From positions 1-55,132 of the forward strand of contig JAZNOL010000115.1 in assembly GCA_045580815.1 (NCBI GenBank): 55,132 nt of DNA, in the 5' to 3' direction. The DNA is from Clostridia bacterium (lineage in GTDB: Bacteria > Bacillota > Clostridia > RUG12999). The position numbers were made by a program, and so were the translations under genes. The notes beneath the pieces were generated by a model. It saw nothing but the letters and a program-made list of their open reading frames with translations, was not told where the DNA came from and did not search any database. This document shows, in pieces, positions 21,268 to 49,224 of this stretch. The first letter of the stretch is position 1. Each line of letters begins with the position of its first letter.

Positions 21268-21332
21268 TTGAAATCCTCCGCTTGCTATAAATTATCTTCA
21301 TTATAAAATCAAGTGTGCAATTTAGGTGGCAA

Positions 21333-21394
21333 GAAATTTTGTAAAACAAAATTTCGTATGTGTCAATTATAACATAAATTTTTTGTTATTGCAA
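21333..21394 (-). promoter_or_regulatory. Promoter of the kinase operon with a downstream palindrome
   Basis: TTGCAA (21389-21394) -17 bp- TATAAT (21366-21371). Perfect 10-bp inverted repeat GAAATTTTGT-aaa-ACAAAATTTC at 21333-21355. Confidence 0.6.
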
Positions 21395-21532
21395 GGGGGC
21401 AGAAATGGAATTTGCATAATTTTATAAAGTTATATAAAAAAATTTGCTTTATTTTCGGGCGATTGCGAAAAAATGTTTACAAATTTTCAACGTTTTGTGT
21501 GCATTATTTAATCACAAAAAAAGGTTTATTTA

Positions 21533-21541
21533 TGTTATAAT
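21533..21541 (+). promoter_or_regulatory. Extended -10 of the 22-kb catabolic operon (no recognisable -35)
   Basis: TGTTATAAT about 33 bp upstream of the start codon. The -35 position reads CACAAA, consistent with activator dependence. Confidence 0.5.
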
Positions 21542-21574
21542 ATATGTAACTAAAAAACGAAAGGAAGAAACCCT

Positions 21575-22966
21575 ATGAAAAAAACAACAAAATGTATGGC
21601 AGGCTTGCTTGCCATGGTGCTTGCACTCACATGTCTTTTTGGCTGTGGAAGCAAGAACACAACAACAGGATCAAACAGTGGTGACGGAGTAAGCACAGTT
21701 ACTTTCTGGTCACCCAGCCCTCACAGCAAAACCTTATATGTTAAACTTGCCAATGAGTTTAACGAATCAACAGGCAAAGAAAAAGGCATAAACTTTGTTT
21801 ATGAAATCAAAGAAAGCAACATGACACAGGCAATCGACCTTGCACTTGCTGCCGACCAGGCTCCTGAGCTTTTTGTAGGCGGAAATGTTGAAGCACTTGC
21901 TTCAAAAGGCGATATCATGGCTTTTGATGATGTAAAAGGTGCTGAAAAACTTGTAGCAAGATTTGAAGACCGTCTTGTTCCGTTTACAAATACATACAAC
22001 GGAAAAACATATACTCTTCCCGTATCTTCAACAATCAACGGTCTTATCTACAACAAGGATATGTTCAAAGCGGCTGGTATCGTTGATGAAAACGGCGAAC
22101 CCACACCTCCCGAAACATGGGCACAGCTTAGAGAATATGCAAAACAGCTGACAGATGCATCAAAAAGAGAATTTGGTGTTGTTCTGCCTCTCAAATGGTC
22201 AGGCTGGGTAGGAAGCGATATTCTTGCGGCAGGTATGCCGAGCCTTGGCAGACAGGGTTATGACCCCACTACCGGAAAATTTGACTATACAGCATACAAA
22301 CCGATTATTGAAACTTATCTTGGTATAAGAGATGACGGAAGCATGGTTCCTGGTGCAGAAAATATTGACAACGACCCGGCAAGAGCAAGATTTGCAGAAG
22401 GCGGTATCGGCATGAAAATAAGTGCTTCATACGACGTTGCGGTATTTAATGACCAGTTCCCTGCAAAAATTGATTGGGGCATTGCTCCGCTTCCCGTTCT
22501 TGACAAAGACAATAAATACAAACAGGCAATGAGCCTTGGTTCTTCTGCAAGAATCAACGCAAAAGCTGTTGAAAGAGTTGGCGATGAAAAGCTTCTTGCT
22601 GTTCTTGAATGGATGTATGGCGAAGAGGTTATTTCTCAGGCATTCAAAGAAGGATTAAATATTCCTAACGATGTAAATATTGTAAATTCAACAGATTTAA
22701 GCGGTGCTAAAAAAGGCTGGAAAGAATTTGCAGATATGATAGAAATCAGCACAGCGGCTCCGGTTGAAATTAAAACAGATACAACAGGATTAAAAACCTT
22801 CTCCGATGTTTTCATTAATGAAATCTGGACAGGCGAAAAAACTGTTGACCAGGCTCTTACAGATTATACAAATGATATGAATTCAAGAATTGACAAATAT
22901 AAAGAAATCAATCCTGACTATGATCCGGAGCCGTTTATTATTAAAGACTGGAATATAAAACGCTAA
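21575..22966 (+). CDS. ABC sugar transporter substrate-binding lipoprotein (CUT1)
   Basis: Lipobox LFG-C. YNGKTYTLP, GLIYNKDMFKAAG, PETWAQL, WGIAPLP. Confidence 0.93.
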   Translation: MKKTTKCMAGLLAMVLALTCLFGCGSKNTTTGSNSGDGVSTVTFWSPSPHSKTLYVKLANEFNESTGKEKGINFVYEIKESNMTQAIDLALAADQAPELFVGGNVEALASKGDIMAFDDVKGAEKLVARFEDRLVPFTNTYNGKTYTLPVSSTINGLIYNKDMFKAAGIVDENGEPTPPETWAQLREYAKQLTDASKREFGVVLPLKWSGWVGSDILAAGMPSLGRQGYDPTTGKFDYTAYKPIIETYLGIRDDGSMVPGAENIDNDPARARFAEGGIGMKISASYDVAVFNDQFPAKIDWGIAPLPVLDKDNKYKQAMSLGSSARINAKAVERVGDEKLLAVLEWMYGEEVISQAFKEGLNIPNDVNIVNSTDLSGAKKGWKEFADMIEISTAAPVEIKTDTTGLKTFSDVFINEIWTGEKTVDQALTDYTNDMNSRIDKYKEINPDYDPEPFIIKDWNIKR

Positions 22967-22979
22967 GGGTGGATACAAA

Positions 22980-23906
22980 TTGGTAACAGCAACTAAAAAA
23001 TCAAGACAGCTAAACGCAAAAACCAAAATGACAGCGCAATGTTATCTGATGCTTTCAACTCAGATTATCGGTTTTATTGTGCTTACGGCATATCCGATTT
23101 TCTGGGCGGCAAAATGGGCTTGGTTCTATTATGACACAATTCCGCAGAATACCAGACTTGTCGGATGGGAAAACTTTGTTAACATTTTCAGCGACTCGGC
23201 ATACTGGAACGCATGGGGAACAACATTGAAATTCGCTGCATGTAAAATTGTGATAGAACTTCCGCTTGCGATGTTGCTTGCAGTTCTTCTCAACAGAAAC
23301 ATTAAAGGTAAAGGCTTTTTTAGAGCACTGTTTTATATGCCCAATATTGTCAGCGTGGCAATTGTCGGACTTATTTTCAGTAATATGTTTGACTATTTCG
23401 GCGTTATCAATGGGTTACTCGGTAAATTCGGAATTGCACCCGAGGGCGTAAACTGGTTTGGCAATGCAGGCACCGCACTGATGGTTATCGTAATTGCGTC
23501 AACATGGAGCACCTTCGGTACAAACATGATTTATTTTCTTGGTGCGTTGCAGACAATTCCCGAGGACCTTTATGAAAGTGCGTATCTTGACGGTGCAAAA
23601 CCGTTTACCGTATTTTTCAAAATAACGCTTCCGATGATTGCACCTATTTTGCAGACGGTTCTTTTGCTTGCAATAAACGGTACACTTCACATAAACGACC
23701 TTGTTCTGGTTACAACAAACGGTGCACCGGGCGGAAAAACCTTTACCGTAATGTCTTACATAGTTAAACAGTTCGTTCCCGGTTTTGCGGAAGCAAATGT
23801 AAACATCGGATACGGCAGTGCAATGGCTCTTATAACCTCGGCTATATACTGCATAATCGGCATTACATACTCAAAGCTCAGCAAACGTTTGTCAGAAATT
23901 TATTAA
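22980..23906 (+). CDS. ABC sugar transporter permease (MalF-like)
   Basis: VGWENF, FFRALFYMP, EAA-loop IPEDLYESAYLDGA...FFKITLP. TTG start. Confidence 0.93.
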   Translation: MVTATKKSRQLNAKTKMTAQCYLMLSTQIIGFIVLTAYPIFWAAKWAWFYYDTIPQNTRLVGWENFVNIFSDSAYWNAWGTTLKFAACKIVIELPLAMLLAVLLNRNIKGKGFFRALFYMPNIVSVAIVGLIFSNMFDYFGVINGLLGKFGIAPEGVNWFGNAGTALMVIVIASTWSTFGTNMIYFLGALQTIPEDLYESAYLDGAKPFTVFFKITLPMIAPILQTVLLLAINGTLHINDLVLVTTNGAPGGKTFTVMSYIVKQFVPGFAEANVNIGYGSAMALITSAIYCIIGITYSKLSKRLSEIY

Positions 23907-23920
23907 AAGGAGGTAACATT

Positions 23921-24772
23921 ATGAAAAAACAAACACTTGTGGGAAACATAATCACATATGTAATTGTAATTATTGTTGCTGTAGTTGCGATGTTCCCGCT
24001 TATTTATACTGTTGCCTCGTCCTTTAAAACAAATGCGGAAATTCTTGCGTTTCCGGAACGTATTTTTCCGCAAAAGCCCTCTTTTGAAAACTATATAACA
24101 GCATGGAACTCTGAAGATTTCAATATAAGACAGATGTTCTGGAACAGTACATATTACACTGTTATATGTGTTTTTGTAACACTTGTTACCTCCACAATGG
24201 CAGGTTATGTGTTTGCAAGAGGGGTGTTCCCGGGGAAAAAACTGGTGTTTTCGGTTTTTTCCGCAACAATGTTCATAAGCCTCGGCACAATTACAGTTTA
24301 TCCGCTGTTTGATATTCTTACGGCAATAAACTTAAATAAATCTCTGTGGGGACTTATACTGGTGAAAATTTTCAGTATTTCCATTGTTAATATTTACCTT
24401 GCAAGAAGCTTTATAAAAACAATACCCAACTCTCTTGACGAGGCGGCGATAATTGACGGGTGCAGCTTTATTTCCATATTTTTCAGAATAATTCTGCCCA
24501 TGATTAAGCCCATAACGGCAACAATCGGAATACTGGCGTTCCAGAGCTCGTGGAACGAATATCTGATGCCTTCAATATTTACCATGGCTGTTCCTGCGCA
24601 GAGAACACTTACCGTAGGTGTTGTGGCACTTAAAAATTCGGGCGACGGTGCGGCATCGTGGAACCTGATGCTTGCAGGCTCAACGGTTGCACTCATTCCC
24701 GTTCTTATTGCCTATTCAATAGGCAACAAATATTTTGTTTCCGGTATGACTGCCGGAGCAGTAAAAGGTTAA
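23921..24772 (+). CDS. ABC sugar transporter permease (MalG-like)
   Basis: SFKT, ENY, IPNSLDEAAIIDG, SWNEY, C-terminal GAVKG. Confidence 0.93.
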   Translation: MKKQTLVGNIITYVIVIIVAVVAMFPLIYTVASSFKTNAEILAFPERIFPQKPSFENYITAWNSEDFNIRQMFWNSTYYTVICVFVTLVTSTMAGYVFARGVFPGKKLVFSVFSATMFISLGTITVYPLFDILTAINLNKSLWGLILVKIFSISIVNIYLARSFIKTIPNSLDEAAIIDGCSFISIFFRIILPMIKPITATIGILAFQSSWNEYLMPSIFTMAVPAQRTLTVGVVALKNSGDGAASWNLMLAGSTVALIPVLIAYSIGNKYFVSGMTAGAVKG

Positions 24773-24814: not shown

Positions 24815-27328
24815 ATGAAAAAAATTATTTCTTTGATTCTGGCATTTACAATTTTAGCAATGATGGCAAACATCGGTATTGTCAGCGCGGCAATACCCGC
24901 AGGCGACGGAAATGGTGTTAAACTGGCGTTTTCAAATCTTGTAAGAACATCTCCCGGTGGAAGCCCGGCATCTGTTTCATCAATTGAAGCCGACGGATTT
25001 GCAAATGCATGCAAATATGTATACGGCGGTGGCGCTAATAAAACATTTACAAAATTCCGTATGGAATTTACAAATACTGAGAATGTAGCGGCAGATGACT
25101 ATCTGTATATTTCATTTTACTATCGTTGCATAGGCGATGACACATATACTTTGCCGTCTTATATTCAGAGAAGAGCAAAAACAAATGACGATGCCAGCTC
25201 AAAAATAGCTTTGGATCACGGCTTAACAACAACATGGCAGAAAGTTTCTTATGTAACACAGTCAGCAGCGGCTGTTGCAGCAGGCTCAAATGTTACACAG
25301 CTGTTCTTGCTTGGAATCAGCGAAGATAAGGCAACATCGGTAGAATTTGCAAACCCCACTTGTGTTTACTTTGGTGCAGTTACCGGCGACAATCCGGAAG
25401 ACCAGATTATGGACGCAATCGAAAAGGCAGAATCTGCACCTGCAATTTCCGTAAACAACGGAAAAGGCGCATCTCTGGCATTTAAGGAAATAAAAAGAAA
25501 CTCTCCGTCAAGCGGAACAGGCGTGCCGATTTCGACAATTGAAGACAGCGAGTTCGGAACTGTGACCAGATATGAATATACTCTGGGTAAAAGCGGAAAT
25601 GTATCGTTTTCTACTGTATTTACAAATAGTTATGATGTAAAAGCAGGAGATATGTTTAATGTATCTTTCTATTATCGTTTTACAGATGATGAAACATACA
25701 ATCTTCCCACATCATTTACAAAAAGAGACGGCATAAACGAAAACAACAACGGTAAAACTTCGTTTGGAAGTAATTTCACTGCCGGAGAATGGAGAAAAGC
25801 ATCACTTACACTGCCTGCAACCGTTGATGTTGCTTCCGGTACGGATATTTTCTTGAGATATGTAGTTTTCTTAACCTCAGGTGATAAAATTTGTGTAGAT
25901 ATTGCTAAACCCACATGTATATACTTTGGAAACGTAGCAAGTGAAAATGCATCCGAAGTTGATGTACAGCTTAATAAATCTGATTTCACAAGCATTTCAA
26001 TCGGTGATGCTGCAATTGATTTAGCGGCTAATCCCACAAGCTACACAACAACCGAAGTTGTTTCAAAATCGGACATTACAGCCGTAGGTTATTACGACAG
26101 TGCAGTTGTGAAAATCGCATCCGAAGAAACAGATGATGCTGTAGTTTATACAATCACATCTTATGCAGTCGGTCATGACTTAACCAGCACAACCGACACA
26201 AAATACACAACATATACAATTACTGCGGTAAAACCGGCTCCGTCAATTACTCTTAACGGTGGCAAAGGTCAGGCGTTGGAGTTTGCTGAATTTGTTGGTG
26301 TAAGCCCGTCAAATCCCGAAAATTACAGCGTTTCTGAATTAGATGGAACAGATTTTGAAAAAGCATACAGATATGAATATTTCGGCAATGCCGATTTGGG
26401 TATTATCCAGAATATTGCAAGATTTAAACCCGGCACAGAAATCCCGGCAGGAGAATATTTCTATTTCTCATACTATTACCGTTTTGTAAAAGATGATACA
26501 CACGCATTGCCCACAGGTATTGCAAGAAGAGGGTCTGTAAATAACAGCAGCGAAAAACCCGGAATTGAAACAGGTGTTAAAGAAGAATGGACAAAGGCTG
26601 AATTTATTGTAACAAACTATAATGCAATAAGTGCAGATGCTTTTGCTGAAACACGTTTCCTTTTAACTCTTGCAAACAAAACCGACAAAATTTATATGGA
26701 TATTGCGGAACCTACTTGTGTTTACTTCGGTGCGGCTACAGGCGATGTGGAAGAAGCTATCAATGAACAGATTTCAAAATCTGACATTTCGGCTATCACA
26801 ATCAACGGTGCACCTGTCGACCTTGCGGCTAATCCCACAAGCTATACAACAACAGAAAAGGCTGAATTTGACAACATTGCGGTTACAGGCTATCACAATC
26901 CGTCAATAATTAAAAAATCTGTTTCAAAAGCAGACGGAAACGTTACTTACACAATAACAGCATATGCAGTTGACTATGATTTCCTTGATTCTACAGATAC
27001 AAGAAAATCAACATACACACTGACAGTTGCAGCTCCTGATTATGATGTTTACAGCTATGATTATGCTAAAACAGCAACAGGCTACACAGTAAATGCAATG
27101 TTTGACAACGCTACAAATGAAGCAGCAAACTTTGATTACATTGTTGCAGCTTACAACGGAAATGCACTTGTTGGTACAGGAATAGCTTCTTACAGCAACG
27201 TTACAGGCAACGGAAACGAGCTTTCAGCAGACATCGTTACAGAAAGCGGAATTTCATACGTTAAAATATTCCTCTGGAACAGCAAAACAGGTCTGATGCC
27301 TGTTATAAACAGCAGAGTAATTGATTAA
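24815..27328 (+). CDS. Secreted non-catalytic modular protein: three CBM-like modules, two cadherin-like spacers and a C-terminal module
   Basis: Signal peptide (..GIVSA). Three ~180-aa repeats starting near 24890, 25445 and 26246 share GxGxxLxF, S(F/Y)YYR, DDxxxLP, (R/K)R, W and PTC(V/I)YFG. Two DLAANPTSYTTTE spacer domains. C-terminal VAAYNG...VKIFLW...LMPV. Confidence 0.75.
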   Translation: MKKIISLILAFTILAMMANIGIVSAAIPAGDGNGVKLAFSNLVRTSPGGSPASVSSIEADGFANACKYVYGGGANKTFTKFRMEFTNTENVAADDYLYISFYYRCIGDDTYTLPSYIQRRAKTNDDASSKIALDHGLTTTWQKVSYVTQSAAAVAAGSNVTQLFLLGISEDKATSVEFANPTCVYFGAVTGDNPEDQIMDAIEKAESAPAISVNNGKGASLAFKEIKRNSPSSGTGVPISTIEDSEFGTVTRYEYTLGKSGNVSFSTVFTNSYDVKAGDMFNVSFYYRFTDDETYNLPTSFTKRDGINENNNGKTSFGSNFTAGEWRKASLTLPATVDVASGTDIFLRYVVFLTSGDKICVDIAKPTCIYFGNVASENASEVDVQLNKSDFTSISIGDAAIDLAANPTSYTTTEVVSKSDITAVGYYDSAVVKIASEETDDAVVYTITSYAVGHDLTSTTDTKYTTYTITAVKPAPSITLNGGKGQALEFAEFVGVSPSNPENYSVSELDGTDFEKAYRYEYFGNADLGIIQNIARFKPGTEIPAGEYFYFSYYYRFVKDDTHALPTGIARRGSVNNSSEKPGIETGVKEEWTKAEFIVTNYNAISADAFAETRFLLTLANKTDKIYMDIAEPTCVYFGAATGDVEEAINEQISKSDISAITINGAPVDLAANPTSYTTTEKAEFDNIAVTGYHNPSIIKKSVSKADGNVTYTITAYAVDYDFLDSTDTRKSTYTLTVAAPDYDVYSYDYAKTATGYTVNAMFDNATNEAANFDYIVAAYNGNALVGTGIASYSNVTGNGNELSADIVTESGISYVKIFLWNSKTGLMPVINSRVID

Positions 27329-27364
27329 TTAGCAAATTAACAAATTAACAAAAAGGAGTAAATT

Positions 27365-30300
27365 ATGCGCAGAGTAATATCGCTTTTGCTGATATTAATA
27401 TGTTTTGCCATACCGGCAAATGCAGAAACATTGCAGGCGACGGTATGGCTGGACAGTAATCCGTCTTCTGTGAATTTCAATGAAAGCTATTACAGCTATC
27501 AGGCGTTGCAAAACGATATTTTCGGCACGGTTTACTCCTTTGAATCAAAACAGGCGGCAAACAATCAGATGATTGATTTTGCCACCAATTACAAAGTGAA
27601 CAGCACAGAGGGCGGCGGCTATCTCTATTTGAGTTTTTATTACAAAGGCTACGGAAAATTTACAAACTACCTTGGAAACGAGGTTACGGGAAGCTCCTGC
27701 ATGATTTATCCACAGTTCAGATTTGCTCATGCTTTGCAGGATGTGTATATGAACGGAAGCAAAGCATTTAAAACGGATTTAAGCGGTTCATGGATAAAAA
27801 AATCCGTTATAATGAAAATAAGCGCCTCAACCCTGGATAAAGCAACCGTAAATTTAAGATTTAAAATAAATCTTTTGGAAAATTTTAAAGTAGATATAGC
27901 CGCACCCACTCTTATACATTTCCCTGAAACTGCAACAGAAACGCAGATTACGGAATATTTAAAAGAAAACGGATATTATTACAACAAAATTCTTCAAAGT
28001 GAAGAGGAGTACAGCAAATATGGCATAGAGCTAACGGGCGAATATTACAACAATCGCAAAACTCTGTGGAATGCCGGCACAACAGGCGACGGAGTGGTGA
28101 AAGAACACACTCTGCGCAATTGGCTTAACGAAATGCTTCCCGAAATTAGGGTAAGCAGAATTTTAAACGGGAACTATGCTTTTGTTGAGGGCAGCTGCAA
28201 TTATTGGAACAAAACAGAAAGAGCAGTTATGTCTGCCCCGGCAATAAAAAATAAAAACGGCGGCTACTCAATTCCCGGCAGTATTGCAAATTTACTTTTT
28301 AAAACAGAAAATACAGATTCTTATGTTGATATAGATGATATAGAAAACATCAATGTTTTTACCGACCACAGGGGATTTATCCTCCTCAGCCATAATCCGA
28401 CAGAGGATGTGGTTGATACATCAGTAAATGAAAATGGATATTATAACTCCGCATTTGATATATCCGATTGTATCGGAACGGTTACATGGGACGATATTTC
28501 TCCAAAAGACAGCGATTATGAAAGATTTCGTTCTTCTTGGTTTGAGGATTTAACTTATCCGAAAAATTGCGAGACGGAATTTTCAGGTTTTATATCCGAT
28601 GCAATTTTGGCGGCAAACAGCTATCTTGCTCTGTATGCCGATGCAGACGGGGCACTTAGTCCTTTTACGGATATTGAAATTCCCGATGCCGGCAGTACGC
28701 AGGACAATTATATTGCACTTGAAACAGTTTACTCGCGGCTTCGTGCAATGGCAATAGGTTATAAAATAGCAACTGTAACAAATAATACCACGGTTGACAC
28801 GCAAAGGCTTAAAAACGCCGTACTTGGCGGGCTGGAGCTTATGCATACAAAATATTATTCCAACAATGCTTACAGAATTGACGGCAGTCCCAGGTTTACA
28901 AGCTTTAAATTCAAACTGCCCGAGGCAGTGTCGGATATTTTGCTTTGTATGTATGATGATATGGATGAAACAACTCTTAAAAAATATGCTCACGAAGCTA
29001 TGGGAAGAAGCATTTTGCCAACTGTTTCCCAGGGAAAAACGGAATGGACAGACTATACAAACCGTCTTTGGGCAACGGTTCCGTATATAAAACTTGCTGT
29101 TTTGATTAAAGACGAAGCAAGAATAAATCACGGTTACAGATATTTGTCACAAGTTTTTGATGATGCTTCAAGAAGCAGTGCAAATCCTACGGGGTTAAGC
29201 GGATTTTATGAAGACGGTTCATTTGTTTTTCATAACAATTTTGCATATAACTTAGGTTACGGAAAATCTTATATCGCTTCTGTTGCCGAGTTTTCAAATA
29301 CCACGGCAGGAACGGTTTTTGACGTTTCAAAAGTTCACGGCTATGACAGAATGTATGACCGCATTATAAATTCATATCTGCCTTTTATATATGATTTTAA
29401 AAATATGAAGTTTGTAACAGGCAGAGAAAATGCATATTCAAATGCGAGAACAACGGTTGCATCATGTATGCTGATTGCAGAAAATGCTCCCGAAGATAAG
29501 CAAAGAGAAATTGCATCGCTTATAAAAAACTGCATTGAAAGCGGTAATCTGGCAAAAGAATATCTTACCAAAAAAACAAGATTTGATACATTTACATATC
29601 TTGCATATCCGACAATCACAAAGAAAACAACAGAATATATAAACAGTCTTGAAACTGTTGAAAGTAAAACAGAAAATTCATTTAACAAAATATATTACAA
29701 TATGGACAGGGCACTTCACAAAACAGAAAAATTCACTTTTGCACTGGCAATGTCCTCGTCCAGAATCCAGAAATACGAATCATCGTCAACCAAGCCAAAC
29801 AGCCTTACGCAGTGGTATACGGGCGATGGTATGACCTATATTCACAATGACAATACGCAGTATATGTCATCATGGTTTGAAAGTGCCAATCCCTATTATA
29901 TGCCGGGAACAACGGTGGACTCTTCCGTAAGAAGCACAGAGCAGACCTTTAATCTTCCGGCAGACGAGTGGGGACTTCCCGAAAACGATTTTGCAGGCGG
30001 TGTTTCAAACGGGACCGTCGGCGTTGCAGGAATGGAGCTTGGCAACAAGTGGGTTTCCGGGCTTGCAGGAAGAAAATCCTATTTTATGCTGGATGACGAA
30101 ATTGTGTGCATGGGCACAGGTATAACAGGCGGATACGGCAACGTATATACGGTGGTTGACAACAGAAAGCTTGACGGCTCTGAGGATATTTTTGTAAACG
30201 GCACTTTATTTGGCGGCGAAAATACGGAGCTTGAAAATCCGCAGTCTGTATGGCTGGAGGGAAATATTGGCTATGTACTTGACGGCAATGACTGTGTTAT

Positions 30301-31000
30301 AATAAAACGTGAGGAATATAAAACAGGACAACCTCATTTTGTTGTGAGCATCAATCACAAAGCTAATCCGGAAAACGGGGGATATTTATACACACTGCTT
30401 CCCGGTGCAAGCCATGCTGAAACACAAAAATTTGCACAAAATCCGACATTTGAGGTGTTAAGCCGGACAAACTCACTTCATGCAATTTTGAGAAAATCCG
30501 ACGGGTTAATAATGGCAAATGTGTTTGAGCCGTGCGCACTTTACGGCTTTGAGTTTAAATCGCCGTGTTCGGTGCTTATTGACGGAGATATGATGTATAT
30601 TTCCGACCCGACAATGAAACAAAACGAAATAGCTTTGAATTATTCAAAAGAAATTAAAATTGATGTAAGTGCTGTAAAAGGGGCAACTTACACATATAAA
30701 CTGCCACCGGTTAATGTTTACAATTGTGATATTACAAATGACGGAACAAACTATATCGGCAGCTGTAATGCCGATAATAACACAAAATCTTTGCAGAATA
30801 TCAGCGTTTATCTGGCGGCTTATAACGGAGAAAAACTTGTGGAATGTGCCGTGGGCGGCGGCGCACTTGGCAGTTGTGCTTCCGGGGCAGAGCTTTTTGC
30901 AAAGCTACCCTGTCCCAAAGAAGAATTTTCACATATTAAAATGTATATATGGCAGAGCTTATTGCCATTAACAACAGCAAAAGAATATAAAGGAAATTAA
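27365..31000 (+). CDS. Secreted polysaccharide lyase family 8 (hyaluronan/chondroitin/xanthan lyase fold) with N-terminal CBM-like and C-terminal accessory modules
   Basis: Signal peptide. GFYEDGSFVFHNNFAYNLGYG (catalytic H and Y nine residues apart), TNR, GRE, MDRALH, WYTGDGMTY, MPGTT, KSYFMLDDEIVCMG. Confidence 0.88.
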   Translation: MRRVISLLLILICFAIPANAETLQATVWLDSNPSSVNFNESYYSYQALQNDIFGTVYSFESKQAANNQMIDFATNYKVNSTEGGGYLYLSFYYKGYGKFTNYLGNEVTGSSCMIYPQFRFAHALQDVYMNGSKAFKTDLSGSWIKKSVIMKISASTLDKATVNLRFKINLLENFKVDIAAPTLIHFPETATETQITEYLKENGYYYNKILQSEEEYSKYGIELTGEYYNNRKTLWNAGTTGDGVVKEHTLRNWLNEMLPEIRVSRILNGNYAFVEGSCNYWNKTERAVMSAPAIKNKNGGYSIPGSIANLLFKTENTDSYVDIDDIENINVFTDHRGFILLSHNPTEDVVDTSVNENGYYNSAFDISDCIGTVTWDDISPKDSDYERFRSSWFEDLTYPKNCETEFSGFISDAILAANSYLALYADADGALSPFTDIEIPDAGSTQDNYIALETVYSRLRAMAIGYKIATVTNNTTVDTQRLKNAVLGGLELMHTKYYSNNAYRIDGSPRFTSFKFKLPEAVSDILLCMYDDMDETTLKKYAHEAMGRSILPTVSQGKTEWTDYTNRLWATVPYIKLAVLIKDEARINHGYRYLSQVFDDASRSSANPTGLSGFYEDGSFVFHNNFAYNLGYGKSYIASVAEFSNTTAGTVFDVSKVHGYDRMYDRIINSYLPFIYDFKNMKFVTGRENAYSNARTTVASCMLIAENAPEDKQREIASLIKNCIESGNLAKEYLTKKTRFDTFTYLAYPTITKKTTEYINSLETVESKTENSFNKIYYNMDRALHKTEKFTFALAMSSSRIQKYESSSTKPNSLTQWYTGDGMTYIHNDNTQYMSSWFESANPYYMPGTTVDSSVRSTEQTFNLPADEWGLPENDFAGGVSNGTVGVAGMELGNKWVSGLAGRKSYFMLDDEIVCMGTGITGGYGNVYTVVDNRKLDGSEDIFVNGTLFGGENTELENPQSVWLEGNIGYVLDGNDCVIIKREEYKTGQPHFVVSINHKANPENGGYLYTLLPGASHAETQKFAQNPTFEVLSRTNSLHAILRKSDGLIMANVFEPCALYGFEFKSPCSVLIDGDMMYISDPTMKQNEIALNYSKEIKIDVSAVKGATYTYKLPPVNVYNCDITNDGTNYIGSCNADNNTKSLQNISVYLAAYNGEKLVECAVGGGALGSCASGAELFAKLPCPKEEFSHIKMYIWQSLLPLTTAKEYKGN

Positions 31001-31014
31001 AGTGGAGGGTAATC

Positions 31015-32178
31015 ATGAAAAAATTATCAATTTTATTAATGGCGGCAATTTTGTTAAGCACTCTGTGCGGACTGATGACAGTAAGTGCGTCAATTCCCGC
31101 AGGCGGTGGCAAGGGTGAGGCTTTGGCTTTTAGTGCACTTAAAAAAGCAACTCCAAGCTCGAACGTTACTATTTCGGAAGAACAGGACGACACCTTTGGC
31201 AAGGTTTATCAATATGCATATGACGGCTTGCTTACAAACACAAACCTGCAATTTTTGCTGACTTTTAAGGGCACAGAGAAAGCAGAAGCCGGCTCATACT
31301 ATTATTTTTCTTTTTATATCAGATTTATAGATGATGATACCTATGATTTGCCTAATTCTTTTGTCAGACGACCCAATGTAAACAATAACTCGGGTCAGTC
31401 GGGTCTTGGCACTCCGCCTTCCGAGTGGAAAAAATTAAGCTTTGTTACAACCAACACATCAGAGATTGCGGAAAATGCAGAAATCCAGATGCGTCTTATT
31501 CCGTTTATGACGGCAGGAACAAAGGTGTGCGTCCAGATTGCAGAGCCCGGATGTGTATATTACGGCAAAGTTACCGCGGACGGCGAGCTTTCTCCCGAGC
31601 AGGTGATTGAAGCCACACTTGGCAAATCGGAAATTCAGACAATTTATATAGATGGTGAGGCTGTTTCGACGGAAGAATTCCCCGATGAATATTTTGCGGA
31701 AATTCTTTGGGAAACAACCGACCTGCCCGAAATCACAGCAGACACATATATTAAAGGTATGTATGATGTTACATGCGATTCGGATACGCTTCCTGCACAG
31801 TATACAGTAACGTCATATGCTCTTAACTATGACAAACTGACACAAACCGGCGGCAAAACCGAGTATAAGGTTAATGTTGACTATAAAAAAGCATGGGCAC
31901 AAATTGATGTAAGCAGTGCACCAAAACCGTATGATTATACAGTTGCGGCAGGTGACATCATTGATGTAACATACGAGCTTTATAATTATGACGAATCAAC
32001 CGCACCCTGTAAAGTTGTATTGCTGTTTAAAGACGGAAACATGTTTAAAGAAGTAATCACATGGGACACAGCAGCATCCAATGATATCGTATCGTACACC
32101 GTTACTGACGAAAATCTTGTAGGATGTAGCGTTACTGCATATATCATTTCTCCCGATAATATGACAATTATTAACTAA
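31015..32178 (+). CDS. Secreted protein: one CBM-like module, a cadherin-like spacer and a C-terminal module (paralog of the 837-aa protein)
   Basis: Signal peptide (..TVSA). SIPAGGGKGEALAFS, SFYIRFIDDDTYDLP..VRR and EPGCVYYG align by eye with the repeats of 24815-27328. Confidence 0.75.
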   Translation: MKKLSILLMAAILLSTLCGLMTVSASIPAGGGKGEALAFSALKKATPSSNVTISEEQDDTFGKVYQYAYDGLLTNTNLQFLLTFKGTEKAEAGSYYYFSFYIRFIDDDTYDLPNSFVRRPNVNNNSGQSGLGTPPSEWKKLSFVTTNTSEIAENAEIQMRLIPFMTAGTKVCVQIAEPGCVYYGKVTADGELSPEQVIEATLGKSEIQTIYIDGEAVSTEEFPDEYFAEILWETTDLPEITADTYIKGMYDVTCDSDTLPAQYTVTSYALNYDKLTQTGGKTEYKVNVDYKKAWAQIDVSSAPKPYDYTVAAGDIIDVTYELYNYDESTAPCKVVLLFKDGNMFKEVITWDTAASNDIVSYTVTDENLVGCSVTAYIISPDNMTIIN

Positions 32179-32191: not shown

Positions 32192-35100
32192 GTGGAGAAA
32201 AAATTTTTAAAATTTATTTCACTGATGTTGACGGTCGCAATGCTTGGTACTTACGGTGTGTATGCCGAACAAAGTGTTGATGATACAGAAAACTTAGAAG
32301 AAATAGAAAAAGAAGAATTTGTGATTCCTGAACATTTAAAATTCTGGATAACAGGTGAAACCTATAAAAACGATGCGCGTTTTTATCATTCGGAGCGTAC
32401 AAGCGAGGGTCTTATGACCGCCGAAAAAATGGCTGAGGTGCTTCAGCAGTCTTTGCCGGAAATTAATGTAGAGCGCGTGCTTAAAGACAATTATGCTTTC
32501 GTCAATAACAGTAAAAAATTCTGGAATCTTGACCAGAAAGGCGTTATGAAGCTGCCGGCTCTCATGAACGAAAAAGGCAAATTTTCTATTCCGTCAGAAA
32601 CGGCATCACAGCTTTTCGGAATTAAAACTACCGGTGAATATATATCTGCCGAAACAATTGCAGAAAACACCGAGTATGATATGTTTACAGACATTCGCGG
32701 GTTTGTTCTTTTCAGCAAAAATGTGTCTGCGGCAGTAAAAACAAATCCTATAAGCAAAAACGGTATTACTTATTACAGCGATGCATTTGTAATATCCGAA
32801 TGTATCGGTGCAATAACATGGGACGACATAAATCCCACAAAAGAGGATTATGCAGCATATAAAAAACGCTGGCTTGAAGCCCTTACATATCCTGAGGGAA
32901 CGCAGGAAAAATATCAGGAATATATTGACGGATTAATCAAGCTTGCGGGCGAAACAATGGCTGATATAAACCGTGACAGCGATATTGAACCCTTTTACAG
33001 TATTCCTATCCCGGATTTTACTGCCACTCAGGTAAATCAGGCGGCAGTTGAATCGTGCTACACCAAGGTGTTCAATCTTGCGCAGGGTTATCGCCTTGCA
33101 AAAATGACCGGCGATACTTCTCTTGATTTGGAACAATTAAAAACCGATATTCTAAACATTCTTGAACTGCTTTATGATAAGTATTACACCAACAACTGTT
33201 ACAGAATAAACGGTACACCACGTTTTACAACCTTCCGCTTCCAGACTCCTCCCACATTCGCCAATATAATAATGCTTATGTATGATGAGCTTGGTGAAGA
33301 AAAACGAACAAAATACGCATACGAAATGTTGGGGAAACAGCTTCATTCTCCGTTTATATCACTTGAAGACGGAGGATACGGCTATTACGATATAGCAAAC
33401 CTTATGTGGTCGGCAAATGGATTTTTCAATATTGCAATTATTTTAGAGGACACGGTAAGAGTAAATCATTGTTTAAGATACCTTAACAATGTTTTTGAAT
33501 TTATGAAAAGGGGAGAGAAAAATCCGCTTCCCGGTGACGGCTGGTATGAGGACGGCTCGTTCCCTTATCACGGCGGCGTTCCTTACAATCTGGGCTACGG
33601 ACATTCCTTTGCAATAACGCTTGCCGATATGGCACTTCTTACAAGAGATACAATTTTTGATATAAGAAATATTTACGGATTTGAAAGAACATACACACTT
33701 CAAACTGAGGCGTGGATACCTTTTATACATAACAACACACGTCTGAAACTGATTCAGGGACGTGAATCTCCCGACCTTACCGCAAGATATTTTCTTGTGG
33801 CAATGATGATTCTTGCAGACGGTGCCCCGGAAAGTGAAAAATACGAGGTTACATACAATCTGAAACCTAAGGTTGAGAATTATTATGATGTATTGTTCAA
33901 GAAAGCGCGTCTGCCTATATTCAAACACGCAATGACACCGTATATTCTTGAAAGTCTCGCAGATTACAGGGGATATATTGAAAACATCGAAACAAAAAGT
34001 GAAGGAAACTACAACAAGGTTTATTACAATATTGACCGAGTTATGCACAAAACCGACAACTTTATTATAGGACTTTCCATGTCTTCGGAAAGAATAAGAA
34101 AATACGAGGCTCTTGCCACAAATGCGGCAAGTTTGCAGCAATGGTACATCGGCGACGGAATGGTATATATTCTTGCAGGCGAAGACCAGTATTCCGGCAA
34201 GTGGTGGACAAATGCCGACCCATATTATATGCCCGGCACAACAGTAGACTCAACCGAGCGTGAGCTCATACCCACAAATGATATGCCTATGCCTGAAAAC
34301 ACATGGTCAGGCGGTGTGACAAACGGAAAAGTCGGCGTAGCAGGAATGATTCTGGGTAATGCAGCAGTTTCGGGACTTCAGGGAACAAAATCGTACTTTA
34401 TGCTTGATGATGAGGTTGTTTTTGTCGGCTCCGGAATAGGAGGCGGCTTCGGTAACAGATACACAGTAGTTGACAACTATATGCTCGCTGATGAAAAAAT
34501 TTATGTTGACGGAAACGAAGTAAGCCTTGAAACAAACAAAGAAACCACTTACGAAAACCCGAAATACTGTTTTGTTGAAAACGGAAACGGATATGTATTC
34601 ATCGGCGACAATAATGTTACTTTAAATAAGAAAGAATATATTGAAGACAAGCCTTATCTTATAACCACAACAAATCATAATGAGGGACAAAACCGCGGAT
34701 ATACATACGTTATTCTGCCTGTAACAAATTCAGAAAAAGTAAAAGCATATTCCGAAAATCCTGATGTGGAAATTATTGCAAACGACAGTACAATGCACGC
34801 AATAAAAGATAAAACAACAGGCATTATAATGGCTAATATTTTCCAGCCGTCAGAATTGGAGGGCTTTGTGTTTGAAACCCCGTGCTGTGCAATTATAGAA
34901 CCGAAAGGAACCGGAAAAACACTGTATGTTTCTGATCCTACATTTAAAAAAGAAAAAATCACGGTAACATTGCCGGAGGGTGAAAAGCTTGAAAATAATG
35001 AGTTTTGCACCGCTGACGGAAACAAGGTAACTGTGGATATTACTGCAACAATCGGAAGAACCTATTCCTTTGCAGTATCGGGACAGGGGAGCGGGGAAAC

Positions 35101-35368
35101 CGCCCAATCGGCTGTCAAAACCTATAATTACAACCTGATATGCAGCGGAAAGACAGTGACAACAAAGCTGTATACAGCAAGCGGAAATTCCGGATTTAAC
35201 AGTTACCGGGTTGCCACTGCCCCGAAATACGGACTGGCAAATATAACAGGAGATACCCTGATTTATACCTCACTTTCTCCTGTGGTGACTGAAGATGAAT
35301 TTGAGATTGAAGTCAGCGACGGCACAGGTAATAGTGCAAAATTCAGTGTTAAGGTGAAAGGAAAATAA
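32192..35368 (+). CDS. Second secreted PL8 lyase with C-terminal Ig/cadherin-like domain
   Basis: Signal peptide. GWYEDGSFPYHGGVPYNLGYG, GRE, IDRVMH, WYIGDGM, MPGTTVD, KSYFMLDDEVV. C-terminal PKYG...LIYT...DEFEIEVSDG. Confidence 0.88.
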   Translation: MEKKFLKFISLMLTVAMLGTYGVYAEQSVDDTENLEEIEKEEFVIPEHLKFWITGETYKNDARFYHSERTSEGLMTAEKMAEVLQQSLPEINVERVLKDNYAFVNNSKKFWNLDQKGVMKLPALMNEKGKFSIPSETASQLFGIKTTGEYISAETIAENTEYDMFTDIRGFVLFSKNVSAAVKTNPISKNGITYYSDAFVISECIGAITWDDINPTKEDYAAYKKRWLEALTYPEGTQEKYQEYIDGLIKLAGETMADINRDSDIEPFYSIPIPDFTATQVNQAAVESCYTKVFNLAQGYRLAKMTGDTSLDLEQLKTDILNILELLYDKYYTNNCYRINGTPRFTTFRFQTPPTFANIIMLMYDELGEEKRTKYAYEMLGKQLHSPFISLEDGGYGYYDIANLMWSANGFFNIAIILEDTVRVNHCLRYLNNVFEFMKRGEKNPLPGDGWYEDGSFPYHGGVPYNLGYGHSFAITLADMALLTRDTIFDIRNIYGFERTYTLQTEAWIPFIHNNTRLKLIQGRESPDLTARYFLVAMMILADGAPESEKYEVTYNLKPKVENYYDVLFKKARLPIFKHAMTPYILESLADYRGYIENIETKSEGNYNKVYYNIDRVMHKTDNFIIGLSMSSERIRKYEALATNAASLQQWYIGDGMVYILAGEDQYSGKWWTNADPYYMPGTTVDSTERELIPTNDMPMPENTWSGGVTNGKVGVAGMILGNAAVSGLQGTKSYFMLDDEVVFVGSGIGGGFGNRYTVVDNYMLADEKIYVDGNEVSLETNKETTYENPKYCFVENGNGYVFIGDNNVTLNKKEYIEDKPYLITTTNHNEGQNRGYTYVILPVTNSEKVKAYSENPDVEIIANDSTMHAIKDKTTGIIMANIFQPSELEGFVFETPCCAIIEPKGTGKTLYVSDPTFKKEKITVTLPEGEKLENNEFCTADGNKVTVDITATIGRTYSFAVSGQGSGETAQSAVKTYNYNLICSGKTVTTKLYTASGNSGFNSYRVATAPKYGLANITGDTLIYTSLSPVVTEDEFEIEVSDGTGNSAKFSVKVKGK

Positions 35369-35370
35369 AA

Positions 35371-37023
35371 ATGAAAAAACTTATATCAGTAATGCTTGTT
35401 ACTCTGCTTATATTGTTTTCAATAACAGTTTCGGCAGATTCTGTTGCAGGAAGTACAACAGTAGATGTAAACTATTCTGTAACTGTTGAAAATACGGTAA
35501 CAATAAGCGGAACAGCCGTAAATATACCAAAAAATGCTCAGCTTACAGTTTCTGTGTTCCACAAAGACAAAACAGTAACTGACCTTCCGGGGACAGGTGC
35601 TTCGGCAATTACTGCAATGGCGGCACTTGAAAAAGTTTCTCTTGATGAAAGCTTAAGCTGGTCCTTTGACTGGCAACCGACTGCAAGCGGAGATTATGAT
35701 ATTTATGTATCATCAAAGTTTTTTGAAAAACCGGTAAAAAACACCTGCTATCTTGCAGCAAACCGCAGTACAGTTGTGAATACAATTGTAACCGGTGATG
35801 AAGCTGAACTTTCCGAGCTGTTTTCAGATGATGACAACATAAAGGCGGTTATTATCGACGGTTCTTTATACGAAAATATTGAAGATACATCAAAAATCGG
35901 CATTATTCTTAATACACTCAAACAGGAGTTTGAAACTGAAGCGGAAATTCTCAGCCTGTTGCCTGTTGCGTGCAGCCTTGCTGCTTTAAGTGAGACTCCC
36001 GGACATAAACTTATGGATGAAATTGTATCAGAATTAGAGACACTCGGATGCGGTTTTACAGAATCAGAATTATACGGTGATTCTTCCGAGGCTGTAAAAG
36101 ACGAAGTTGCGGCTAAACTGGCAGACAAGGTAAATAATAAAATTTCAGACCTTGATCCTGTTTTCACCGAAGCTCTTATATTAAGCGGCGTTGAAAAAAG
36201 CACAAACTATGTGACGGTTATTGATTATCTTGAATTGCTCAGCGACAGAACATTTGAAAAGGATAAAACAGCTGCGGCTGAAGCTGTGGTAGGAAACGAA
36301 TATACCATGGAGCAGTTGCTTGATGCTATCAAAGAGGCTGTTGAGCCGGAAGATGATTATTCCGACGGACCGTCCTTCTCCGGCGGAGGCGGCGGTGGTG
36401 GCGGAGGCGGAGGCTTCGTTGCCATGTCGGGAAACATTGTTACTCCTGTTATAAAAGAGGAAGAAGCAAAAAAAGACCTCGTTACCTTTACTGATGTTCC
36501 GGGAACTCACTGGGCGTTTGATGCTATTAACAATCTCAGATGGAAAGATATAGTAAGCGGAAACGAAAAAGGCGAATTTTTGCCCGACAACAATATAACC
36601 AGAGCAGAAATTGTTAAAATGGTTTGCGAGCTGTATGACATTACCGGTTCAGGCAATGCATCATATGATGATGTGAGCGAAAACCATTGGGCGTTCAGAT
36701 ACATTTCTGCGGCAACAGCAAATAATATTGTTATGGGCGACGGGGCATGCTTTAATCCCGATCAGTTTATTTCAAGACAGGATCTTGCAACAATAATTTA
36801 CCGTGTTACACAGAAATACGGCAAGAGCTACGAAGACGGCACGGTTGATTTCGGTGACAGCAATGCTATTGCAGACTATGCCGCCGAAGCAGTGGGCAAG
36901 CTGTATGTGGCAGGAATAATCAAAGGCAAAACAAACGGCTTGTTTGAACCCGCAGCACTTTCCACAAGAGCAGAAGCGGCAACAATCATATACCGGTTGC
37001 AAAGTGAAATGGGGGTAGAATAA
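35371..37023 (+). CDS. Secreted protein with Ig-like N-domain, poly-Gly linker and three C-terminal SLH domains
   Basis: Signal peptide, VTISG, G11 tract, FTDVPGTHWA..TRAE, YDDVSENHWA..SRQD, FGD..IADYA..TRAE. Confidence 0.88.
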   Translation: MKKLISVMLVTLLILFSITVSADSVAGSTTVDVNYSVTVENTVTISGTAVNIPKNAQLTVSVFHKDKTVTDLPGTGASAITAMAALEKVSLDESLSWSFDWQPTASGDYDIYVSSKFFEKPVKNTCYLAANRSTVVNTIVTGDEAELSELFSDDDNIKAVIIDGSLYENIEDTSKIGIILNTLKQEFETEAEILSLLPVACSLAALSETPGHKLMDEIVSELETLGCGFTESELYGDSSEAVKDEVAAKLADKVNNKISDLDPVFTEALILSGVEKSTNYVTVIDYLELLSDRTFEKDKTAAAEAVVGNEYTMEQLLDAIKEAVEPEDDYSDGPSFSGGGGGGGGGGGFVAMSGNIVTPVIKEEEAKKDLVTFTDVPGTHWAFDAINNLRWKDIVSGNEKGEFLPDNNITRAEIVKMVCELYDITGSGNASYDDVSENHWAFRYISAATANNIVMGDGACFNPDQFISRQDLATIIYRVTQKYGKSYEDGTVDFGDSNAIADYAAEAVGKLYVAGIIKGKTNGLFEPAALSTRAEAATIIYRLQSEMGVE

Positions 37024-39635
37024 TGAACAAAACCATTATAAGAATAATTTCCGGCTTTCTTTGTGCATTTATTTTTGCGGCAGTATTGCCGAATATGCCT
37101 GCCTTTGCTGCCGAAAGTGATGTTACAGAAGAAAAAATGCTTCTTGAAGCAATCGGTGTGCTTGATACCGAGGCAGAAGAAAACAGCGTTGTTACAAGAG
37201 CAGAGCTTATTAAGAGTGTGATAAAACTCCGAAAAGCCGACAGCAAAATAACAGCAAGCGCCCCGGCTTTTACTGACCTTTCGGAAAGTCATTGGGCATA
37301 TGATGAAATAATGACAGCCTATCAGCTTGGATATATTGAAGCAGACAAACAGGGTAAAATTTATCCTGACAGTCCTGCAAATGGCTCATTTGCTTTAAAG
37401 GTTCTGGTTGATGCTCTTTGCTACAAAGCAATTGCCACAAACTACGGCGGAAATGACAGTGCTTATTTTAAAGCAGCCGGTGTTATAGGGCTTACAGATA
37501 AAATATCTGTTTCCCTGTCAGCACCCATAGAACGAGATGATTATGTAAGACTTCTTTACAATGCACTTATTGTTCCGCTTTCGGAAAGTGTTGTAGAAAA
37601 CGGAACACCGGGTTTTCAGGCTGAATCAAAAAGAAACCTGCTTAATTCGGTTTATAATATTTATCGTACAACAGGCGTTGTTACGGCAAATAAATACATA
37701 ACCCTGGGCGTTAATCCCTATGATGGAGACAAAGATTTCATTATAATTGATAATGCAAAATATTACACGCAGAGTATTGATACAAATGAACTTCTTGGCT
37801 GTAATGTAAAGCTGTATTACGAAATAGACGATGACGATGTTAAAACCGTGGTTTGTGTGCTGCCGAAAAACAATACTGTGGTTACACTTGGCAACAGCAA
37901 CATCAAATACAGTGATTTTAAAATCACGGCTGTGGAAAGAGGCTTAGAAAAAGAGAAGAAATACTCAATCGACATAAGAACAAGTATTATTTGGAACTAT
38001 AAGCTCATAGGTGAAACTGAATTTGCAGCAAAAGTTCCCGGTTTGAGCGGAGAAATGAAACTTGTTGACAATGATTCCAACGGAATATATGATACTGTGA
38101 TTGTCGAAGAACAGAAGGTTATAGAAGTATACGGTTACAGTGCTGATGCAAAAATCATCAGCGGAGCAAACAAGGGTGAAAAATATGAGCTTGAGAAATA
38201 TACAAACGTTATGTATCAGAGCTTTGACAAAACCTTGTCATCACCGCTTATACTTCAGAATGCGAAATATGTTTCGGTGTTTGCAACAGACGGTGATTAT
38301 CGAAATATAGCCATAAGAGAGTGTAAACCGGATATACAGACAACGGTTAACGGTATTTCTGCCTCTGACGGCACAATAGACCTTGAAAACTACGGTACAT
38401 TATATTTATCAAAGAAAATGATGATGAGTGCGTCGGAAATTGAGGTCGGTCAGGAATATATATTCAGCTTTGACTGCTACGGTGATATAATTTATGCATC
38501 AACACTTAATACAGGCAGCAATAATCTTGTATATCTTATAGACAAAAAACTTGACACCGGTTTTGGCGGCTTTGAAATTCTTGTTATGGATTTGCAGGGT
38601 AAAACTGAGGTATATAAATGTGCTAAAAATGTGAGCGTGCGTGAACGCTCAGGAACGGTAAATCCCTATACTCAAAAAGACTTAAACACCTTGCTTTCCA
38701 CAAGACAGCCGATGATTATCCGTCTTAACAACAACAGGGAAGTAACCAGAATTTTTCAGCTTGCAGACCCTCAAAGAGACGATTTGTTTTTCCACGAAAT
38801 AGATTATTTTGAAGGATTCCCCGAAACTGAAAGAAACAAGCTTGAATATCAGAGAAGTAAATTAGCTTTTTCAAATGCCATAATGCTTCGCAGCAACGCG
38901 GTGAAGATGTTTGCTGTTCCGCATAAAGAGAAAACCGATTGTGCAACAGAAGATTTCAAAGTTATAACGCAAGCAAATTTCAGAAGCGGAAAATCATATG
39001 ATATTGGTCAGACAGCTTTCCGTGCAACTGCTATCTGCATGGAAGCAGACGATTTTATTTGTGATTATATGGTTTGGGAATATGCTGACAGTATGAATAA
39101 GCTTGACAGCATGACTTTAAGCTACGGTGCTGTGGAAAAAGCGGCAAGAGCGGTTAATTCCAAAACAGGAGAAACCGGCTGGCAGATAAAAGTAGGCGAA
39201 AAAGAATACTGGCTCAGAGAACAAACTGATGTCAATGGAAATAAAATCGAAACAGGAAGCGTTATTGCCTTTACCAGCGATTACAGCGGCAGTCCCACAA
39301 ACAGTTCTATAAAGGTGCTGTGCGATTTGAATACCGGCAAAATATACACTCAGGGTTCTATGGGGAATTATACAAAAAATGACAGATTCCGTGTAGGAAA
39401 AGCAGAGCTTATCGGCAAAAGCGGCGGAGTGGGAAGATTCCGCGTTACCCGTGACGGTGCCGGAACTACGATTGTTCAGTGCTATAACATATCGGGCAAA
39501 AATGTTTATGTTTACGATGCAAATACAAAGAAATTCAAACAGGAATCTGCGGTGTCATATCTGCAAAAGGGCAATAATGTTATTCTTGGAATCAGTGCTG
39601 ATTCATTGGCAAACATATATATGATAAAACAGTAA
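37023..39635 (+). CDS. S-layer-like protein with N-terminal SLH domains
   Basis: Signal peptide (..PAFA), VTRAELI, FTDLSESHWAY..GYI, then a long beta-rich region. Start overlaps the upstream stop (TAATG). Confidence 0.8.
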   Translation: MNKTIIRIISGFLCAFIFAAVLPNMPAFAAESDVTEEKMLLEAIGVLDTEAEENSVVTRAELIKSVIKLRKADSKITASAPAFTDLSESHWAYDEIMTAYQLGYIEADKQGKIYPDSPANGSFALKVLVDALCYKAIATNYGGNDSAYFKAAGVIGLTDKISVSLSAPIERDDYVRLLYNALIVPLSESVVENGTPGFQAESKRNLLNSVYNIYRTTGVVTANKYITLGVNPYDGDKDFIIIDNAKYYTQSIDTNELLGCNVKLYYEIDDDDVKTVVCVLPKNNTVVTLGNSNIKYSDFKITAVERGLEKEKKYSIDIRTSIIWNYKLIGETEFAAKVPGLSGEMKLVDNDSNGIYDTVIVEEQKVIEVYGYSADAKIISGANKGEKYELEKYTNVMYQSFDKTLSSPLILQNAKYVSVFATDGDYRNIAIRECKPDIQTTVNGISASDGTIDLENYGTLYLSKKMMMSASEIEVGQEYIFSFDCYGDIIYASTLNTGSNNLVYLIDKKLDTGFGGFEILVMDLQGKTEVYKCAKNVSVRERSGTVNPYTQKDLNTLLSTRQPMIIRLNNNREVTRIFQLADPQRDDLFFHEIDYFEGFPETERNKLEYQRSKLAFSNAIMLRSNAVKMFAVPHKEKTDCATEDFKVITQANFRSGKSYDIGQTAFRATAICMEADDFICDYMVWEYADSMNKLDSMTLSYGAVEKAARAVNSKTGETGWQIKVGEKEYWLREQTDVNGNKIETGSVIAFTSDYSGSPTNSSIKVLCDLNTGKIYTQGSMGNYTKNDRFRVGKAELIGKSGGVGRFRVTRDGAGTTIVQCYNISGKNVYVYDANTKKFKQESAVSYLQKGNNVILGISADSLANIYMIKQ

Positions 39636-42463: not shown

Positions 42464-42476
42464 GAGGATTAAGGTT

Positions 42477-49180: not shown

Positions 49181-49224
49181 AATATTATTAAAATAATTTT
49201 TAAAAATTAAGGAGGAATTTTCCA

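Follow-up and report, generated by a model that had tools for sequence, protein, structure and literature searches.

Two consecutive secreted proteins encoded on a 55,132-nucleotide contig of an uncultured Clostridia bacterium (JAZNOL010000115.1, GenBank assembly GCA_045580815.1; the whole stretch is referred to as the window) each end in a copy of a domain of about 100 amino acids (aa) that had not been annotated before, referred to here as the module. The module family is real and widespread; it is Ig-like, occurs in single copy, mostly at the C-terminus, and its carriers are Sec-secreted proteins of many kinds. It is linked to envelopes of the S-layer homology (SLH) type at three levels, namely protein architecture, gene neighbourhood and genome distribution. 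From these links we infer that the module is quite possibly a non-covalent surface-retention device that serves as an alternative to the SLH anchor.

Two copies of the module in the window

A first-pass annotation of the window had proposed a C-terminal module shared by three consecutive secreted proteins. Four consecutive open reading frames (ORFs) on the forward strand were confirmed in this region (24815..27328, 27365..31000, 31015..32178 and 32192..35368), and the three tails quoted in that annotation were located correctly, with positions 27038-27328, 30710-31000 and 31890-32178 translating to the quoted strings. The first ORF (24815..27328, + strand) encodes a secreted, non-catalytic protein of 837 aa without a Pfam family, in which a signal peptide is followed by three units, each a ~170-aa second module plus a ~90-aa domain, and then by module copy 1 at the extreme C-terminus (26981..27325, + strand; 115 aa by profile envelope, family profile 1.4e-18), which AlphaFold2 predicts to be a seven-stranded Ig-like beta sandwich. 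The second (27365..31000, + strand) encodes PL8-a, a polysaccharide lyase family 8 protein of 1211 aa with a signal peptide (Lyase_8 1.4e-50, Lyase_8_N 2.9e-26, Lyase_8_C 7.5e-6), in which module copy 2 (30629..30991, + strand; family profile 7e-16) ends two residues ahead of the stop codon. The two copies share 28% identity over 102 aa (blastp E 2.7e-12), and their Smith-Waterman score of 108 compares with 29.3 +/- 5.3 for shuffled sequences (z 14.8), a score that none of 2000 shuffles reached.

The proposal thus stood for the 837-aa protein and PL8-a and was not supported for the third protein, of 387 aa (31015..32178, + strand), whose last ~95 aa (31890-32175, + strand) hold no demonstrable module copy. 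In comparison with the 837-aa tail this sequence gave z 3.3 (score reached by 12/2000 shuffles), and in comparison with the PL8-a tail z 0 (score reached by 924/2000). Its match to the family profile was 6.7 bits, which left it outside the genome-wide matches, and its hhalign probability against the family was 3.2%. The first motif (VVLLFKDGNMFKEV) alone is in register with the family, and the K-x-F-x-W...P end motif is missing. As the secreted 387-aa protein corresponds collinearly to a single repeat unit of the 837-aa protein (33-35% identity to its repeats, E 3e-39 to 5e-30), its tail may conceivably be a degenerate relic. One long BLAST alignment pairs the 387-aa protein with residues 477-793 of the 837-aa protein; where it extends into the module it does not follow the register of the profile, and it was discarded as an extension artefact. 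The reported absence of the module from the second lyase, PL8-b, and from the SLH proteins of the window held, with family matches limited to two window ORFs and an hhalign probability of 0.2% for the PL8-b tail.

A sequence family outside the domain libraries with a predicted Ig-like fold

A family profile was iterated from the two tails over the 11,123 stop-to-stop ORFs of at least 60 aa in the window's own genome (2.09 Mb, 117 contigs, 84.7% complete). At convergence the module was present in 43 of these ORFs, and a six-frame search counted 49 matches. An alignment of 41 copies, which left out a 66-aa fragment and the weakest match, was used for the comparisons that follow. Within it, the hallmark residues, numbered along the 115-aa tail of the 837-aa protein, are N43, A56-x-Y58, L63, K95-x-F97-x-W99 and P107, with conservation highest for Y58 (39/41), followed by L63 and K95 (36 each), P107 (34/40), A56 (31) and W99 (30/39).

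By sequence, the module matched no characterised domain at curated thresholds. Pfam returned nothing at curated thresholds for the window tails or for the 41 aligned copies; below the curated cut-offs, CARDB (PF07705) matched two of the 41 (best E 0.0039) and CBM_25 matched one (E 0.0054). NCBIfam had no module match in five module-bearing proteins, and a profile search of PDB sequences gave nothing better than E 0.04. The ESM Atlas yielded only Bacillota clusters without names, all below 0.9, and a homologue search with the module alignment gave 13 matches, all nameless. A phmmer search with the 837-aa tail alone against 1.84 billion representatives gave four matches at E<=1e-3, the query itself included; two PD40-repeat proteins from the phmmer results (P0005 and P0006) were not confirmed as module carriers by the family profile. 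Literature searches turned up no description of the module, which is weak evidence that it is undescribed.

AlphaFold2, run on the 41-copy alignment, predicted a complete Ig-like sandwich of seven strands (pLDDT 83.9, pTM 0.73). The first-pass annotation had proposed looking for an incomplete Ig fold or strand donation; because the predicted sandwich is complete, there is no sign of either a missing strand or strand donation. Foldseek found no PDB match for the model at E<=1e-3. In an exhaustive VIA-align search, ranks 1-16 were all glycoside hydrolase family 2 (GH2) enzymes matched through their Ig-like second domain (Z 12.2 to 9.9), the best being 6hpd_A residues 203-322 (Z 12.2, rmsd 1.8 Å over 94 residues). 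The module therefore appears, on the basis of this model, to combine a known fold with a sequence family that was not known. The likeness to GH2 Ig-like domain 2 (PF00703), the best structural match, is one of predicted fold: PF00703 matched one of 41 module copies by sequence (E 0.089, curated threshold not met), and no GH2 catalytic domain was found in 42 module proteins scanned. In GH2 enzymes domain 2 is internal, lying between the sugar-binding domain and the TIM barrel, whereas the module is terminal on unrelated proteins.

This fold brings in the main rival explanation, which is that the module plays a passive structural part at the protein end, as an Ig-like cap or spacer that stabilises or spaces the preceding domains of secreted proteins in this lineage and has no specific ligand. 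We regard this as a strong rival, though less likely than not. In the first 16 rows of the structural search, the closest folds all belong to domain 2 of GH2 enzymes, itself a structural Ig-like domain, the mean identity among module copies is very low, and the conserved residues (aromatic Y and W, small A) are of the kind typical of Ig-fold cores. On the other side, strands 53-58 and 94-99 have hydrophobic residues on both faces, so that a surface of the module may be covered. The position of the module and its relation to SLH proteins, described below, also bear on this explanation.

Position and cargo of the module

Each of the 43 module ORFs carries a single copy, and in 33 of them (about 75%) the module lies within five residues of the stop codon. 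The module is therefore mostly terminal across the proteome, and the claim that it is always at the extreme C-terminus fails: 10/43 copies are internal in this genome, with 82-516 residues downstream, as are 8/31 copies in five other genomes. Where internal copies were scanned, what lies after the module is a CE4 deacetylase, a GDSL esterase, GH43 plus GDSL, or three SLH domains. As a rule, generic Ig spacers form tandem arrays and can sit at any point along a protein; the single copy per protein and the preference for the terminus are unlike such spacers and speak against a passive cap, and the quarter of copies that lie inside the protein, ahead of esterase or GH domains, speaks for one. On contig C95 (G000:C95:38246-43072), a 563-aa ORF ends in the module, and four bases further on comes a 1045-aa ORF in which the module is internal. 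This pair and the module-then-esterase architectures suggest an origin of internal copies by fusion of a module-ended gene with the gene downstream.

The expectation that module proteins are exported was borne out, as a signal-peptide-like N-terminus was found, by our own heuristic, in 37 of the 38 module ORFs complete at the 5' end, the exception being a 109-aa fragment. Independence from the cargo was likewise confirmed, with catalytic and non-catalytic proteins alike bearing the module. Across the 42 of 43 ORFs scanned, the cargo comprises PL8, GH43, GH30-type, arabinofuranosidase-type, Glyco_hydro_cc, CE4 and GDSL domains, as well as a papain-like protease (Peptidase_C1) with a lectin domain, BspA-type leucine-rich repeats (LRR_5), GLUG, CBM11 and Big_5. 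An enzyme-family domain is present in 9/42 module proteins, and many have no Pfam match.

This range of cargo bears on a second alternative, that the module is a carbohydrate-binding module (CBM) of Ig-like fold that aims enzymes at a dietary or host glycan and not at the cell's own surface. Its size and fold class agree with those of Ig-like CBMs, there are weak single-member matches to CBM_25 (1/41, E 0.005) and Mannosidase_ig, and the structural matches include carbohydrate-binding domains (6o14, Z 8.5; 4iyk, Z 8.2). The conserved residues include aromatics plus a lysine, and most of the identifiable cargo is glycan-active. Nevertheless, a single substrate is unlikely, given that a papain-like protease, BspA-type LRR and GLUG proteins and enzymes acting on unrelated glycans are also among the cargo. 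No CBM family matched at curated thresholds, and a CBM would leave the near-exclusion from SLH proteins (below) unexplained, since SLH-anchored glycan-binding proteins would profit from one. We consider this alternative quite unlikely.

Still less probable is a C-terminal secretion or sorting signal, possibly cleaved, that a machine for export or attachment would recognise in the manner of the type IX secretion system (T9SS) C-terminal domain of Bacteroidota (Por_Secre_tail). The likeness is that of a ~100-aa Ig-like sandwich that ends, for the most part, dozens of unrelated secreted proteins per genome. The T9SS domain belongs to another phylum, and a quarter of module copies are internal, which is at odds with a strictly terminal signal; because these copies precede folded enzyme domains such as esterases, a secretion or sorting signal is unlikely. 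Por_Secre_tail was not among the Pfam matches of the 41 copies or the NCBIfam matches of five module-bearing proteins, and the proteins already have Sec-type signal peptides. No sortase matched in the genome (84.7% complete), and no dedicated machinery was identified, no search for T9SS machinery genes having been made. Together these points, and chiefly the internal copies ahead of folded enzymes, make the sorting signal highly improbable.

Near-exclusion between the module and SLH domains

The genome is rich in SLH proteins, with 137 PF00395 matches and 64 ORFs found by a profile built from 26 of those regions. The first-pass annotation had raised mutual exclusion between the module and SLH domains, and this was upheld as a near-exclusion. 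Among 182 secreted-like ORFs of at least 300 aa, a set that we defined heuristically, 35 carry the module only, 53 SLH only, 93 neither and one both (OR 0.05, p 2.3e-5, with paralogs counted although they are not independent). SLH domains anchor proteins non-covalently to a pyruvylated wall polymer. In 22 proteins with N-terminal SLH domains the C-terminus is free; the module is present in none of these 22, compared with 34/118 non-SLH secreted-like ORFs (p 0.002) and 27/51 of those of at least 600 aa (p 3e-6). The exclusion thus appears to be more than a competition for the C-terminus, with the qualification that the 22 proteins are not independent, since most come from one paralog family. 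A passive cap offers no reason for this exclusion, including the 0/22 with a free C-terminus.

Gene order and the content of the SLH proteins also bear on the relation. For 23/43 module genes there is an SLH gene no more than 3 kb away, compared with 15/93 other secreted-like genes. In the 30 C-terminal-SLH proteins no catalytic Pfam domain was recognised; one has a weak arabinofuranosidase-associated match, and others carry fn3, Big, CBM30-like, cohesin-like, LRR or Flg_new domains. The SLH proteins of this organism thus look like non-catalytic binders or scaffolds, and its identifiable enzymes are without SLH.

SLH domains and the module are found in the same genomes and on the same class of large secreted proteins, and are nearly exclusive, as alternatives would be. 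In sequence and fold they are unrelated: no PF00395 match was found within the 41 module copies, and SLH domains occur in triplets at either protein end, whereas the module is single.

Restriction of the module to SLH-positive Clostridia

Elongation factor G places the organism among uncultured Oscillospiraceae-like Clostridia metagenome-assembled genomes (best identity 83%). Among its nearest relatives, the module was found in 18/18 genomes of the same family and in 4/12 of other families, and in a sample across the class it was present in 70/251 Clostridia genomes (E<=1e-5), most often as multiple copies. Every one of the 70 genomes with the module is SLH-positive, compared with 160/250 overall, and the module was found in none of the 90 SLH-negative genomes of the sample; these counts include related genomes, which are not independent. 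The module is an expanded family in SLH-rich Clostridia, and a passive cap gives no reason for its restriction to SLH-positive genomes.

In five genomes of five other families, 23/31 module copies are terminal. Four of the eight internal copies are followed by SASA, GH127, CE2/GDSL or GDSL domains, one by a CARDB-like match and three by no family, and none has SLH downstream within about 500 aa. In addition, seven of seven database proteins carry the module at their very end, including a GH123/CBM9 enzyme; two of the seven also have cohesin and dockerin domains upstream in the same chain.

A family of N-terminal-SLH paralogs as candidate partner

A candidate partner is provided by a family of proteins of 800-1350 aa with an N-terminal SLH region and an all-beta body, for which clustering counts 17 members in this genome and a profile 18 (18-19 copies). 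At least 35 copies are present in some relatives. The 870-aa protein of the window (37023..39635, + strand) is a member, with SLH at residues 83-119, by BLAST clustering and by the family profile (5.9e-151). Beyond SLH, the family has no Pfam or PDB sequence match; AlphaFold2 predicts, at medium confidence (pLDDT 67.8), a body made up of a string of small beta barrels, for which Foldseek returned only low-TM OB-like matches.

The genes of the two families lie close together. A module gene is found within 5 kb of 13/18 genes of the N-terminal-SLH family, and reciprocally a gene of that family lies within 5 kb of 18/43 module genes (controls 11/176 and 27/785) and within 10 kb of 25, of which 24 are on the same strand. 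This adjacency is also seen in other genomes, including those of other families. Across 250 genomes the N-terminal-SLH family is present in 82, with 65 having both families, five the module only, 17 the N-terminal-SLH family only and 163 neither. A complex prediction for the module against the non-SLH part of the 870-aa protein gave scores of 0.00 and 0.07 against a mark of 0.32, was run without controls and is no evidence either way.

Comparison with the dockerin system

The module belongs with the cargo-independent terminal modules of secreted proteins, and its sequence family was itself previously unannotated. A close parallel in logic is the type I dockerin of cellulosomal enzymes (PF00404) with its cohesin-SLH anchoring scaffoldins: like the module, dockerins are single, mostly C-terminal and cargo-independent on dozens of secreted Clostridia enzymes, and in both systems the enzymes lack SLH and non-catalytic SLH proteins are encoded nearby. 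The predicted fold of the module, a seven-strand beta sandwich, differs from that of the dockerin, which is a calcium-binding duplicated helix-loop-helix. PF00404 matched 0/41 module copies at E<=0.1 and 0/40 module-bearing ORFs at E<=1e-3.

The genome has one dockerin match, on contig C69, and one cohesin match (27.4 bits). The latter is in a 1416-aa protein with fn3, CBM30-like and three C-terminal SLH domains (G000:C57:8420-12667), whose gene adjoins the genes for a module-bearing GDSL esterase and a member of the N-terminal-SLH family.

A putative role in surface retention

If the module is a surface-retention device, it would hold otherwise free enzymes non-covalently at the cell surface by binding a constant component of the envelope, and so act as a functional alternative to the SLH anchor. 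The ligand could be an SLH-anchored protein of the same locus, either an N-terminal-SLH paralog or a C-terminal-SLH protein, or else the polymer of the wall. Retained in this way, the 837-aa protein and PL8-a of the window would stay near the ABC importer encoded in the same locus. Of the docking or surface-sorting role suggested earlier, the parts concerning signal peptides, diverse cargo and near-exclusion with SLH agree with the results above; strict terminality and strand donation do not, and sorting is unlikely.

Several observations weigh against surface retention. A quarter of copies are internal, as described above, and one of the 43 module ORFs carries SLH domains as well (C3 31786-34779, the module plus three SLH domains). 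The predicted fold is generic and resembles the GH2 Ig-like domain, and module copies are only ~17% identical to each other. Because conservation is low, a shared receptor site would need to consist of few residues, which could equally well belong to the fold core. Identity is no higher among modules of the same locus than between loci (median 18.6 vs 16.9%, p 0.23), and locus-specific co-adaptation of the modules is thus not supported. One genome (G071) has 42 module matches and 57 SLH matches and no match to the N-terminal-SLH family at E<=1e-3, and that family is therefore no obligatory partner of the module. Finally, the statistics count paralogs and related genomes, and the signal-peptide and secreted-protein sets come from our own heuristic.

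A more elaborate proposal, which we think unlikely, is that of a second docking system without cohesin and dockerin, in which the module would be the enzyme-side plug onto a locus-encoded, non-catalytic SLH rack, giving locus-specific surface assemblies. Under this proposal, each polysaccharide-utilisation locus of uncultured SLH-rich Clostridia would supply its own rack, made up of an N-terminal-SLH paralog and/or C-terminal-SLH proteins.

The surrounding locus

The module genes of the window lie within a polysaccharide-utilisation-type locus whose flanking parts span 19095-24772 and 39656-43619. The locus encodes a histidine kinase and a LuxR-type response regulator, an ABC sugar importer (binding protein and two permeases), two PL8 lyases, two SLH proteins, a 935-aa FAD_oxidored-type protein and a GH88-like hydrolase, a gene content that suits uronic-acid polysaccharides such as glycosaminoglycans. 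The assignment of both lyases to PL8 was confirmed. PL8-b (32192..35368, + strand; 1058 aa, Lyase_8 3e-44) is without the module, has a C-terminal Big_9-like Ig domain by Pfam, and shares 39% identity with PL8-a over 922 aa. It is followed by a 550-aa protein with three C-terminal SLH domains and no catalytic domain, a candidate surface adaptor (35371..37023, + strand; SLH 4.4e-33, three stretches), and then by the 870-aa protein.

The 387-aa protein matches residues 1-206, 210-455 and 477-793 of the 837-aa protein. Both contain the ~170-aa second module (motifs YFYFSFYYRF...DDTxxLP...CVYFG), of which three copies lie in the 837-aa protein and one in the 387-aa protein, each with a ~90-aa domain after it. 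In a phmmer search of the genome this second module was confined to these two ORFs; the N-terminus of PL8-a gave a weak match to it (E 3e-5). It has no Pfam family match and is possibly a locus-specific glycan-binding domain.

The EF-Tu gene of the window (49204-50424) contains one in-frame TGA, at 49573-49575 (...GPMPHT*EHILLAR...), at a position where EF-Tu sequences normally have arginine. As TGA is an ordinary stop in this genome, where it ends 173/853 long ORFs, an assembly error or a pseudogene copy is likelier than recoding.

Implications

The module family has been missed by current domain libraries despite its presence in 70 of the 251 sampled Clostridia genomes. Even if it is a structural cap, its profile would annotate the C-termini of hundreds of "hypothetical" proteins. 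Should it serve in retention or docking, its presence would flag enzymes held at the surface in metagenomes, and it could provide a new small display tag. In Paenibacillus-type organisms, glycan-degrading enzymes do carry SLH domains; those considered here do not, and this genome has no sortase match and almost no dockerins. A retention or docking role for the module would explain how a large group of uncultured Clostridia of the gut holds such enzymes at the cell.

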